Virus record (IMG/VR): IMGVR_UViG_2718218322_000009
From: a virus
Lineage: Duplodnaviria > Heunggongvirae > Uroviricota > Caudoviricetes
Strand: one strand, 5' to 3'
Length of the DNA stretch: 50,251 nucleotides
Shown here: positions 42,001 through 45,000 of the stretch, one piece after another
Layout of the letters: each line of letters begins with the position of its first letter
Position numbering within the stretch: the first letter of the stretch is position 1
Program-made: the position numbers

Positions 42001-45000
42001 GCCATGCGGATGTGCTCATGTTTGATTTTCATGAATCATTTGCCTCTTGATGCTTCGGGTATGATCGTTTTCGTCATTTGGTTGCTTCATCGACATATTC
42101 TGCGAATAACATGACGAGCGTCGTAAGTATGTCCAATCAACATCAGGACGAAGTTCTTCACACAGGACACCACCTTTTGTTGCTCGTTCAATCGCAGGAC
42201 ATCTCTCAGCAGGCAACTGACGTACACCTTTGATCCATTGATTTACGCTTGGAGGAGATACACCTAAAAGCCTAGCCATTGCTGATTGCCCACCGACAAC
42301 AGCACAAGCTCGTTTGAATGAATAGTTATCTTTTTTCATCGAATGAACTCCAAAAAACACACAATAATATTAGGCTTAGCCTAATGCAATTGTCAATAGG
42401 CTATGCCTAACGCTTCGAGAGTAGGTATTGCCTAATGCGATGCACATAGGAGACTATTAAGCAATGCTTAGTGGTAAAGACTTAGGCCGAGCGATAGAGC
42501 AGGCCATTAACAAAAAAATTGCATCAGGAGCCGTCAAATCAAAGGCGGAAATCGCACGTCATTTCAAAGTCCAACCACCATCAATCCATGACTGGATTAA
42601 GAAAGGTTCGATAAGTAAAGACAAACTTCCAGAACTATGGCGTTTCTTTTCTGATGTGGTTGGTCCAGAGCATTGGGGGCTTAACGAATACCCCATACCA
42701 ACCCCATCCACTTCAGATACAAAAAGTGAACTTTTAGACATAAACAGCCTTTATCAAGCCGCCTCTGATGAAAAAAGAGCAATTGTGGCTTTCCTCTTAT
42801 CTGGAAATGCTACGGAGCCTAGTTGGGTTGATCATGACGTTCGTGCCTACATTGCCGCAATGGAAATGAAGGTAGCTAACTATCTGAAAAATCAAGAATC
42901 AAAACGGAAAAGCCAGAACATCACCAAGACAGGAACTTAAACTTATATGGTCCGACGGGAAATTCCTAGTTCCCGTTAGTTAACTCCTACTACCTCTCCC
43001 ACAAACCATCACCTATTAGGTCGCACCCAAATCATTAGGCGTAGCCTATTGACAAGCAATTAGGCATTTCCTATAGTTTTCCCATACCAACCCATCCCGT
43101 CCCACACAATACAGGGCAATACCTAGAGTTACCCGGCAGTGGTCAGGGATTAAGTAGCCAGCCCGAGGCGTAAGAACATGACGGCAGGGTTCAACTTTAA
43201 CTATGCAGCAGGTTTTTGTTCCGCTACCCCGGCGTTAAGGGGATATGAGGTCAGCATGGATACTCTTGATCTTGGCAACAACGAATCTCTGGTGTGCGGC
43301 GTGTTTCCCAACCAGGACGGCACGTTCACCGCGATGACGTATACCAAAAGCAAAACGTTTAAAACCGAATCTGGCGCGCGTCGCTGGTTAGCAAGAAACT
43401 CTGACTAATGAAATCTGGTAATTAAGGAATCCTCCACGGGGGGAGAGTGGTGCACACGCGCCGGACACAAGCAAGCATCCGGCATGCTCTTTAACAATCT
43501 GGATATCCATAACAGTAAAAATCTACAGATTGCCGTTCAGTTTTCTGGCCAACTCTTCAATAGATGGAGGTGATACGTAATCCGGATTTTTATTCATAAG
43601 AAACTGATCTTCACAGTACAGGCACCTGCTTTTATGAAAAAATTCATATTCTCTAACCGGGAATGGCTGAAGTATCGATACTATCTTTTGTCCAAAACAT
43701 TTTGGACAAAGATGCATGATTATGCTGCCGCCGTTCACGGTTACCTCCTTCGAGTACACAAAAGTTCCCGACTCAAGTTGGCTAAGGATATAACCTTCCG
43801 TCTGAGCCTCAAAGTTTTCAAATTCTGCAATTTTAGCTTTGAGAGAAGCATTTATTTCTTGATAAGTGCCCACCAGCTCAACGAGAGACACGCATTCGCG
43901 CTGAATAGATGCAAGCTTTGAGTTCAGTTCACCAATAGCCGCATTTACTTCAGCTTGAGTTTTTGCCTCGTTCATTAGTTTTGCAATCTGGGCGGTTTCA
44001 CGAATAGCCGTCATTGCTGCCGTTAATTCAGCGATCACATTCAATACTCTTATTGTTGTTGGGGATATCCAGATTAACAAGATCCTTGTTGTTGGGGAAT
44101 AACGGGGACCACCTCGCCTGACGTGGTAAAAAGCAGGCACACAACACGAAAGCACACGGCGAGGTTGCTGGTTCATAGATAGCCTATCGTTAAATTTTCG
44201 TCGACCGTGCGCTTCCGGTTGTGGCAGTCCGCGAAATGGCGCGGCGGTAAGTATGGCTGGGGTTTCCTCCATTGCTCCAGAAAATGCACCGGGTTGTCAG
44301 GTTGACCATACGCTTAAGTGACAACCCCGCTACAACGCCCTCTGTTATCAATTTTCTGGTGACATTTGGCGGTATCAGTTTTACTCCGTGACTGCTCTGC
44401 CGCCCTTTTTAAAGTGAATTTTGTGATGCGGTGAATGCGGCTAAGCGCACGCGGAACAGTTAAAACCAAAAACAGTGTTATGGGTGGATTTGAACCGCCC
44501 CGGAAATCCTGGAGACTAAACTCCCTGAGAAAGAGGTAAACAGGATGACTAAAAATACTCGTTTTTCCCCCGAAGTCCGTCAGCGGGCGATTCGTATGGT
44601 TCTGGAAAGTCAGGATGAATATGACTCACAGTGGGCGGCAATTTGTTCCATTGCCCCAAAGATTGGCTGTACGCCGGAGACTCTGCGTGTCTGGGTTCGC
44701 CAGCATGAGCGGGATACCGGGGGCGGTGATGGTGGGCTCACCAGCGCTGAACGTCAGCGTCTGAAAGAGCTGGAACGTGAAAATCGTGAACTGCGCCGCA
44801 GTAACGATATCCTTCGCCAGGCTTCCGCTTATTTTGCGAAGGCGGAGTTCGACCGCCTCTGGAAAAAATGATGCCACTGCTGGATAAGCTGCGTGAGCAG
44901 TACGGGGTCGGACCGGTATGCAGCGAACTGCATATTGCCCCGTCAACGTATTACCATTGTCAGCAACAGCGACATCATCCGGATAAACGCAGTGCCCGTG

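Follow-up and report, generated by a model that had tools for sequence, protein, structure and literature searches.

Predicted RacR operators on both sides of racR in the immunity region of a Rac-type Escherichia coli O157:H7 prophage

Rac and related lambdoid switches

E. coli K-12 needs RacR for viability, since the protein keeps toxic prophage genes silent. Experimental work on the K-12 Rac prophage has established RacR binding at the right operator cluster (OR), the ydaS promoter, and the derepression of the left operon upon loss of RacR. By DNase I footprinting, EMSA and ChIP, a RacR monomer occupies ATTAGGC, and the racR-ydaS region contains the inverted repeats (PMC9638921, PMC5700373). 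The operator O1 is protected from DNase I at the lowest RacR concentration; another operator lies on the initiating ATG of racR, and is also an off-target site of the Csp231I C protein; and the ydaS promoter has been mapped by primer extension and is abolished by mutagenesis of its -10 element (PMC9638921). When racR transcription is lowered by CRISPRi or by the C protein, ydaG, ydaF, kilR, racC, recET, xisR and intR rise 40- to >100-fold. K-12 RacR is an octamer in solution by size-exclusion chromatography, which has been read as four dimers on the four intergenic sites, with no OR-OL loop, and a structural model of the protein has been published (PMC11014345).

Left operators and promoters (OL/PL) have been proven in lambda, in Qin (dicBp) and in CP-933P (PL933P). 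The Qin DicA/DicC switch has a short, non-cleavable repressor that controls dicBp, a PL-like promoter just past its own gene that drives the DicF-dicB operon. PL933P, identified past the repressor locus of CP-933P, a prophage of E. coli O157:H7, was tested experimentally and is repressed ~100-fold both by the repressor and by YdaS (PMC8630535). We found no description of an OL or PL for RacR in the open-access papers surveyed, whose accounts cover only the intergenic operators; a prior description is possible.

We analysed a 50,251-bp stretch of DNA (hereafter the window), in which positions 42361-43080 are very probably the immunity region of a Rac-type lambdoid E. coli O157:H7 prophage beside potC, with RacR acting at both OR and OL. 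The layout is that of an ordinary lambda-style immunity region. The region aligns with K-12 Rac at 87% identity, with every site in place and the operator differences mostly in the N3 spacers. Their repressors are orthologous and their operators occupy equivalent positions, the ATG among them; ydaS promoter hexamers and YdaT-box are likewise common to both, and the K-12 sequence also has the same downstream pair of sites. The two differ in YdaT, which is a divergent variant in the window, in ydaG, which is absent from it, and in cargo, which is of the DicF/dicB type in the window and of the kilR/sieB type in K-12 Rac.

Lambda and the window alike place OR between divergent repressor and cro genes, and OL/PL downstream of the repressor gene and co-directional with it. 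The sequence-only reading had called the layout similar to lambda OR/OL, as in Rac, and had set it apart from lambda because repressor and early-left genes are co-directional. The likeness is upheld by the RacR orthologue, by YdaS and YdaT, and by the two clusters on outward-facing promoters. The contrast was mistaken: in the lambda sequence cI, rexA, rexB, OL1-3, nutL and N all lie on one strand, and there is therefore no real difference in this respect. Operators are 17 bp long in both, with adjacent centres 23-24 bp apart in lambda and 25-26 bp apart in the window; the third OL site (in the window, the OL3-like remnant) is centred 20 bp and 19 bp, respectively, from the second. Lambda CI and RacR are both octamer-capable. 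In contrast to lambda, with its OR1-3 and OL1-3, the window has four OR sites and only two good OL sites, an OR-OL distance of ~0.65 kb rather than ~2.4 kb, no rex genes, no N gene or recognisable nut site seen after PL, and a repressor without the S24 autocleavage domain.

Operator clusters and the repressor gene

A scan for ATTAGGC-N3-GCCTAAT with at most three mismatches returned seven matches in the window against 2.1 expected, a number reached by none of 100 shuffles, and six of the seven fell within 42361-43080. Exact ATTAGGC/GCCTAAT 7-mers number five in the window, and each sits in one of the two clusters. With a scoring matrix trained solely on the four intergenic sites of K-12 Rac, six window sites ranked 1-6 across the 50 kb (14.8-20.6 bits); the next match scored 10.6 bits, and shuffled sequence gave 0.15 matches of at least 14.8 bits. 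The palindromes do exist, and in numbers well beyond chance. The seventh match (20823, three mismatches) was considered as a further operator cluster and set aside, being compatible with chance and absent from the top 15 matrix matches.

The palindrome scan and the matrix counts together therefore give four sites in the right cluster, and two full sites with a half-site in the left (Table 1). The earlier proposal that two clusters of this palindrome bracket the repressor gene agrees with the top six matrix matches, which form an OR-like and an OL-like cluster. Its counts needed amending. The three palindromes assigned to the divergent region correspond to OR1, OR2 and OR3, and a fourth, OR4, had been missed; among the three assigned to the DNA past the 3' end of the repressor gene, two are OL2 and OL1, and the third is only a half-site.

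Table 1. Coordinates of features in and around the immunity region. Operator sites are numbered in lambda style.
Feature	Position in window	Strand	Description
ydaT-like CII analogue	41607..42032	-	Pfam YdaT_toxin, 2.6e-10
ydaS-like Cro analogue	42016..42339	-	Pfam YdaS_toxin, 3.8e-30; P22_Cro, 1e-08
YdaT-box	42022..42039	-	ATGATT-N6-AATCAA across ydaT start codon; 1 mismatch to TTGATT-N6-AATCAA
PR-like promoter of ydaS-ydaT	42367..42396	-	TTGACA, 18-nt spacer, TAATAT; 10/12 consensus
OR1	42369..42385		ATTAGGC-TTA-GCCTAAT; perfect palindrome, 0 mismatches; 20.6 bits (top score)
OR2	42395..42411		AATAGGC-TAT-GCCTAAC; 2 mismatches
OR3	42420..42436		AGTAGGT-ATT-GCCTAAT; 2 mismatches; racR promoter region
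OR4	42456..42472		ATTAAGC-AAT-GCTTAGT; 3 mismatches; 19.7 bits; spans racR ATG
racR	42464..42940	+	158-aa repressor with N-terminal HTH, without S24 peptidase domain
Hairpin	42954..42977	+	8 bp; just past racR stop codon
OL3-like remnant	43015..43031		ATTAGGTCGCACCCAAA; left half good (ATTAGGT), right half degenerate; 4 mismatches (our count)
OL2	43034..43050		ATTAGGC-GTA-GCCTATT; 1 mismatch; 19.4 bits
PL-like promoter (predicted)	43049..43077	+	TTGACA, 17-nt spacer, TATAGT; 11/12 consensus
OL1	43059..43075		ATTAGGC-ATT-TCCTATA; 3 mismatches; 14.8 bits
PL leader (predicted transcribed)	43086..43255	+	Conserved; sequence common to phages of other immunity types
DUF1391 (YdaF-like) small protein	43256..43408	+	First gene of PL operon; Pfam DUF1391, 1.9e-30
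DicF sRNA	44354..44405	+	Rfam RF00039, 77 bits (gathering score 48); downstream cargo of PL-like operon

The repressor scores 246.8 bits against the NCBIfam RacR equivalog NF049929 (cut-off 200) and is identical to K-12 RacR at 145 of 158 residues (92%); judged by these comparisons, it is a RacR orthologue. The gene is annotated racR in the identical O157:H7 record. A Pfam search of the 158-aa protein found no domain, and in particular no Peptidase S24, the domain of RecA-stimulated self-cleavage; a search of solved structures found no related chain. Homologues from Achromobacter have the same N-terminal domain and operators, plus Peptidase_S24. The hairpin beyond the racR stop codon forms part of the MFE structure of 42938-43012 (75 nt; -13.2 kcal/mol over its full length, z = -1.86) and, as read from the alignment, differs from K-12 by a single G-C to A-U replacement, which keeps the pairing. 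It has no U-run and was not called by the terminator scan; it may act between racR and PL as a weak terminator or insulator.

In the racR-ydaS region, four inverted repeats of the form (T/A)TAGGC-N3-GCCTA(T/A) align one-to-one with the K-12 sites, and these right-cluster sites are already known because RacR has been footprinted there in K-12 (PMC9638921). OR1, the strongest operator and the counterpart of O1, overlaps the -10 element and spacer of the near-consensus ydaS promoter, as in a RacR-type region. The left end of OR2 is fused to the -35 element of the same promoter (GCCTATTGACA on the minus strand), and the N3 spacer of OR4 takes in the A and T of the racR start codon (42464-42466). 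OR2 is kept in all RacR-type loci, OR3 is kept as AATAGGAATTGCCTAA in distant relatives, and of 13 racR-homologue loci scanned, 12 have OR4 at the ATG and one, an Aeromonas MAG (L017), lacks it. The ydaS and ydaT genes are transcribed divergently from racR, and the YdaT-box, read on the minus strand, is a perfect match to the motif reported for K-12 in PMC11879457.

Among five distinct E. coli-type sequences, half-site positions were rarely variable (5/84) compared with other intergenic positions (48/176; Fisher p = 3e-5), and N3 spacer positions were variable at 5 of 18. One match spans at least 80% of 42361-43080 in all 1086 of 1086 matching E. coli genomes, and roughly a fifth of complete E. 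coli genomes have the racR immunity module.

The left cluster and a PL-like promoter

The OL pair lies 95-135 bp beyond the racR stop at 42940, and overlaps the -35 and -10 elements of a PL-like promoter that points away from racR toward the early-left genes. The final two bases of OL2 are the first two of the -35 hexamer, and the right half of OL1 makes up most of the -10 hexamer; as an operator, OL1 is a weak match. This cassette repeats the PR cassette in inverted orientation, with 32 of 45 positions identical. The OL3-like remnant scores <8 bits on the matrix. It has three mismatches in some E. coli relatives (ATTAGGTTACGCTTAAA), and its left half is kept in E. coli-type loci and absent from distant relatives.

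A match to the promoter consensus is no proof of activity, and promoter-like matches across the region were in no excess over shuffles (two found against 3.0 expected). A second operator cluster on an early-left promoter, downstream of the repressor gene and co-directional with it, is present at the sequence level, from which RacR binding at OL and activity of PL are predicted. The left cluster is a predictable addition to the published right cluster, and a modest new detail.

The OL pair recurs beside racR homologues in Mixta, a Pseudomonadota MAG, Proteus and two Achromobacter, in each case with unrelated flanks. These distant pairs keep a -10 element made from the second site; the centres of OL1 and OL2 are 25 bp apart in every locus that has the pair, and the OL2-promoter junction, with the same GCCTATTGACA sequence as on the PR side, is kept from E. 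coli to Achromobacter. In Achromobacter, the pair is separated from the repressor gene by ~0.8-1.4 kb of other DNA.

Phages of other immunity types share the window sequence only from ~9 nt past the PL -10 element (~43086 on). This leader is 85-94% identical to the phages Tritos, Evi and others, with matches starting at ~43083-43101, that is, 143-161 nt into a query beginning at window position 42941. Tritos and Evi each have their own operator words at both OR and OL. Evi is of the PaaR2/CP-933P immunity type, and has the leader directly after its PL-like region. Tritos has a Qin-like layout, with a 139-aa HTH_3 repressor, the same leader and, by our own reading, operator words of the GTACA type; Qin DicA/DicC differs from the window in repressor family and operator sequence. 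The CP-933P PaaR2/YdaS switch has the gene order of the window, an octameric repressor and four repeats at OR. It differs in its repressor family and operator word (GTTTAGTAA-type), and in the paaA2-parE2 toxin-antitoxin pair between the repressor gene and OL, whereas OL in the window directly follows the repressor gene. By analogy, the PL-like promoter of the window would correspond to PL933P.

We considered the leader as a known RNA of the put or nut kind and as a structured RNA, and rejected both: no Rfam match was better than E = 1.3, the single-sequence fold was worse than that of shuffles (z = +1.5), and the alignment fold was essentially without covariation. The ORF list holds no N candidate between PL and DUF1391. 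PL is followed by DUF1391, whose annotation is the same in the identical record, by DicF, and by dicB-, exonuclease-, xis- and int-sized ORFs. An IS3-family element (44545-45758) interrupts the operon downstream of DicF, so that some of the cargo under this control may have ceased to be expressed in the strain.

Control of the left operon

In the mechanism that we propose, RacR dimers would recognise the 17-bp operators as two ATTAGGC half-sites with 3 bp between them. Dimers at OR1 and OR2, on the -10 and -35 elements of the strong PR-like promoter, would shut off the Cro- and CII-like genes, and dimers at OR3 and OR4, over the racR promoters and start codon, would provide autoregulation. The second near-consensus promoter would be covered by OL2 on its -35 and OL1 on its -10; it would read in the direction of racR (+), through the leader and into the DUF1391, DicF, dicB-, exonuclease-, xis- and int-sized reading frames, so that the early-left operon would be silent while RacR is present. 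The repressor gene is flanked by inverted copies of one promoter-operator cassette, and one RacR octamer may bridge OR1-OR2 and OL1-OL2, as in lambda.

The K-12 experiments bear on this mechanism. Read-through from the racR promoters cannot explain the rise of the left operon, because these promoters are the ones being shut off; the rise on racR shut-off speaks for a distinct promoter, downstream of racR and repressed by RacR. We consider it possible, though somewhat short of probable, that the following reading holds as a whole: the OL pair is genuine and has escaped notice in published work on Rac; the octamer may bridge OR1-OR2 and OL1-OL2 in a ~0.65 kb loop enclosing racR, rather than sit on four intergenic sites; OL-bound RacR may, with Rho, block racR transcripts from the toxic left operon; and one DNA-binding domain and operator cassette is reused with two different C termini, enterobacteria having a small domain for oligomerisation there and Achromobacter an S24 peptidase.

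Could the OL pair be a looping aid only, serving ydaS repression and autoregulation, while the early-left genes are reached by racR-promoter read-through that Rho normally stops? The K-12 racR region is reported to contain a Rho-dependent terminator (trac/timm) that protects cells from kil expression, and kil silencing has been ascribed by one group to Rho termination of racR-promoter read-through, with no PL invoked (PMC4150792). RacR is octameric, and the leader has a C-rich, unstructured 5' part, like a Rho loading site. We nevertheless regard this account as unlikely. The OL pair is fused to TTGACA-17-TATAGT, with both hexamers kept in distant genera amid unrelated flanks; the left-operon genes rise, rather than fall, when CRISPRi or the C protein blocks racR transcription; and the PaaR2/CP-933P counterpart is an active, repressible promoter. 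Moreover, looping and promoter occlusion can coexist.

It is less likely still that the downstream sites are mainly, or equally, operators for the Cro-like YdaS rather than for RacR. Repressor and Cro analogue both act at OL/PL in lambda and CP-933P, and the K-12 papers have YdaS competing with RacR for the intergenic operators, but the half-site sequence is the one footprinted as a RacR monomer site, and a role for YdaS would supplement RacR control of PL without replacing it. That the downstream palindromes are a non-functional duplication relic, or RNA hairpins that terminate racR transcription, is very improbable and already disfavoured: the PR and PL cassettes are indeed inverted copies, and the terminator scan flagged the OR1 palindrome as a weak minus-strand stem-loop, but that scan called neither OL site, the stems are just 7 bp with 3-nt loops and the OL sites lack a T-run, half-sites are far more constrained than the intergenic DNA around them, and the sites persist across gamma- and beta-proteobacterial hosts.

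Control of PL by RacR would leave the general picture of lambdoid switches unchanged. If true, it would give a direct reason for the rise of kilR, recET, xis and int when RacR falls, the reading of the RacR octamer would be revised, and a copy of DicF in O157:H7 would come under RacR control. A further prediction is homoimmunity between the O157:H7 prophage and K-12 Rac.

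Published and predicted operators on either side of racR

Between 41600 and 43450 the window matches E. coli O157:H7 chromosomes with 100% identity; NCBI's annotation there lists racR together with genes for a YdaT-family, an HTH and a DUF1391 protein. In strain 4276 the immunity region lies within a lambdoid prophage, with replication genes to one side and dicB, an exonuclease pseudogene, xis and int to the other, adjoining potC. The racR product passes the NCBIfam RacR equivalog model and is 92% identical to K-12 RacR; Pfam matches the genes divergent from it to YdaS/P22_Cro and YdaT, and shows the first gene downstream to be DUF1391/YdaF-like.

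Allowing up to 3 mismatches, ATTAGGC-N3-GCCTAAT had 7 matches over the 50,251 bp where 2.1 were expected (0/100 shuffles reached 7), and 6 of the 7 fell within 42361-43080. All five copies of the exact 7-mer ATTAGGC/GCCTAAT in the window sit within the right and left clusters. A weight matrix trained only on four K-12 Rac intergenic sites ranked the six sites first (14.8-20.6 bits; next match 10.6), with 0.15 matches of at least 14.8 bits in shuffled sequence. Mismatch counts and matrix together confirm that the repressor gene is bracketed by two clusters of such sites, as the sequence-only reading had it, though its three palindromes per cluster need correction: the divergent region holds four (OR1-OR4), and past the repressor's 3' end OL2 and OL1 stand, the third being a half-site at 43015-31 with a good left half (ATTAGGT), a degenerate right half and a score below 8 bits.

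Features of the racR immunity region and left operon (window coordinates)
Feature	Position	Strand	Details
YdaT-box	42022-42039	minus	ATGATT-N6-AATCAA; across ydaT start codon
OR1	42369-85		0 mismatches
PR-like promoter	42396 to 42367	minus	TTGACA-18-TAATAT
OR2	42395-411		2 mismatches
OR3	42420-36		2 mismatches
OR4	42456-72		3 mismatches; across racR ATG (42464)
racR ORF	42464-42940		158 aa
Hairpin after racR stop	42954-42977		8-bp; no U-tract
OL2	43034-50		1 mismatch
PL-like promoter	43049-43077	plus	TTGACA-17-TATAGT; 11/12 consensus positions
OL1	43059-75		3 mismatches
Leader	43086-43255		~170 nt; 5' part C-rich
Short ORF in leader	start 43178		MTAGFNF...; GAGG before it
249-aa ORF	43523-44272	minus	inside PL operon, opposite strand
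DicF	44354-44405		within PL operon
IS3-family element	44545-45758		two ORFs; ALIL frameshift pseudoknot 44826-44942
dicB-sized ORF	45893-46081

K-12 Rac aligns with this region at 87% identity and retains every operator site, the operator differences being mostly confined to the N3 spacers. There, DNase I footprints, EMSA and ChIP show that RacR binds the DNA between racR and ydaS. In the published proposal a monomer recognises ATTAGGC and the operators are (T/A)TAGGC-N3-GCCTA(T/A) repeats, of which one lies over the ydaS promoter and another across the racR ATG; the ydaS promoter (TTGACA / TAATAT) was both mapped and subjected to mutagenesis (PMC5700373, PMC9638921). Later papers describe four inverted repeats and a RacR octamer, read as four dimers on those repeats (PMC11014345). 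The right cluster is published biology, here as an O157:H7 allele. OR4 also contains CTAAG/CTTAG, at which the Csp231I C protein is reported to act off target in K-12, with lethal effect (PMC9638921); the same cross-talk is therefore expected in the O157:H7 prophage. The YdaT-box has the motif published for K-12 Rac (PMC11879457), where the box reportedly drives a reverse, PRE-like promoter of racR.

The left cluster and a PL-like promoter

A promoter scan of 41900-43600 returned only two sigma-70-like sites, each coincident with a cluster and pointing outward. The two cassettes are inverted copies, identical at 32/45 positions: in both, the first site ends GCCTATT and runs directly into the GACA of the -35, and the right half of the second site provides the -10. 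Across five distinct E. coli-type sequences, 5 of 84 half-site positions were variable versus 48 of 176 other intergenic positions (Fisher p = 3e-5), as were 5 of 18 N3 positions. Every E. coli genome matching 42361-43080 (1086/1086) matches at least 80% of it, which argues that OR, racR and OL move as one block. The assignment of the downstream cluster as OL/PL is well supported by sequence, conservation and analogy.

Co-directional repressor and early-left genes had been taken as a departure from lambda; because lambda carries cI, rexA, rexB, OL1-3, nutL and N on one strand, this is exactly the lambda layout and not specific to Rac. Site geometry is also very close to lambda's. Operators are 17 bp in both; centres of adjacent OR sites lie 26 and 25 bp apart (36 bp to OR4) versus 24 and 23 bp in lambda, OL1-OL2 25 versus 24 bp, and OL2-OL3 19 versus 20 bp. 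The OR-OL distance of ~0.65 kb and the reported octamer make a lambda-like loop by RacR plausible.

When racR transcription is lowered in K-12, by CRISPRi or Csp231I C protein, ydaG, ydaF, kilR, racC, recET, xisR and intR rise 40- to >100-fold. Read-through from the racR promoters is ruled out as the source, since these are being shut off; the rise is consistent with another promoter, downstream of racR and repressed by RacR. The open-access papers that we searched or read, up to a 2026 preprint, make no mention of operators or a promoter there, and one K-12 paper calls the RacR regulon, including the ydaFG operon, uncharacterised. We found no description of a RacR OL/PL; lambda, Qin and CP-933P have established equivalents.

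Other immunity types and distant homologues

In phages of other immunity types the match to the window starts only at ~43083-43101, a few bases past the -10, and upstream each has operator words of its own that recur at both its OR and its OL (GTACA-type in Tritos, GTTTAGT-type in Evi). Evi carries paaA2 and parE, and is therefore of the CP-933P/PaaR2 type. In CP-933P, PL933P was identified just beyond the paaR2-paaA2-parE2 locus, cloned, and found to be repressed ~100-fold by PaaR2 and by YdaS (PMC8630535). Evi's PL-like region is placed relative to the shared leader as the window's PL-like promoter is, and by this analogy we infer that the latter corresponds to PL933P.

The leader directly follows the PL-like promoter, is nearly invariant across the RacR, Tritos and PaaR2 types, and appears more conserved than adjoining coding DNA. 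No Rfam family matches it, no fold is significant and covariation is almost nil; it may serve to load Rho, signal antitermination or encode a leader peptide.

Scanning the RacR protein against GTDB species genomes returned 12 loci. Mixta, a Pseudomonadota MAG, Proteus and two Achromobacter carry two sites past the repressor gene at a spacing of 25 bp, with the GCCTATTGACA junction and -10 design retained in unrelated flanking DNA. In Achromobacter (loci L014, 2501-5076, and L016, 2501-4393) the 362-366-aa repressors fuse the RacR-type N-terminal DNA-binding domain to a C-terminal Peptidase_S24 (LexA/CI-like); OR and OL there consist of the same operators. Between gene and OL pair lies other, uncharacterised DNA (~1.4 kb in L014, ~0.8 kb in L016), positioned like rexAB between cI and OL in lambda. 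Another locus, L008 (JARKOR010000130.1), is a 5.2-kb contig binned as 'Candidatus Nanosynbacter' in which an E. coli Rac immunity region sits, complete with all operators and a RacR 92% identical to the window's; it is probably a binning contaminant.

The left operon and a proposed circuit

The IS3-family element sits between DicF and the dicB-sized ORF. In strain 4276, whose immunity region is identical, ~1.3 kb is absent at this position. In the window's strain the PL operon is probably split by the insertion. The 249-aa ORF, annotated in strain 4276 as a 516-bp hypothetical gene, gave no convincing match in a Pfam search and occupies the position of sieB in K-12 Rac. Elsewhere in the prophage, Rfam gathering-level matches were to sok antitoxin RNA (near hokD), STnc100 sRNA and sar RNA (36422-36596, 32632-32798, 10397-10463).

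We propose that RacR dimers at OR1/OR2 would occlude the ydaS-ydaT promoter, that OR3/OR4, over the racR promoters and start codon, would mediate autoregulation, and that RacR at OL2/OL1 would occlude the PL-like promoter and so keep the leader, DUF1391, DicF and further ORFs silent. The hairpin after racR, which differs from its K-12 Rac counterpart by one compensatory G-C to A-U change, may together with Rho-dependent termination, published for the racR region (PMC4150792), hold racR transcripts out of the left operon. Zero Pfam domains were found in the 158-aa RacR, which thus lacks an S24 peptidase, so induction presumably proceeds other than by RecA-stimulated cleavage. All told, this is a typical RacR-type lambdoid immunity region.
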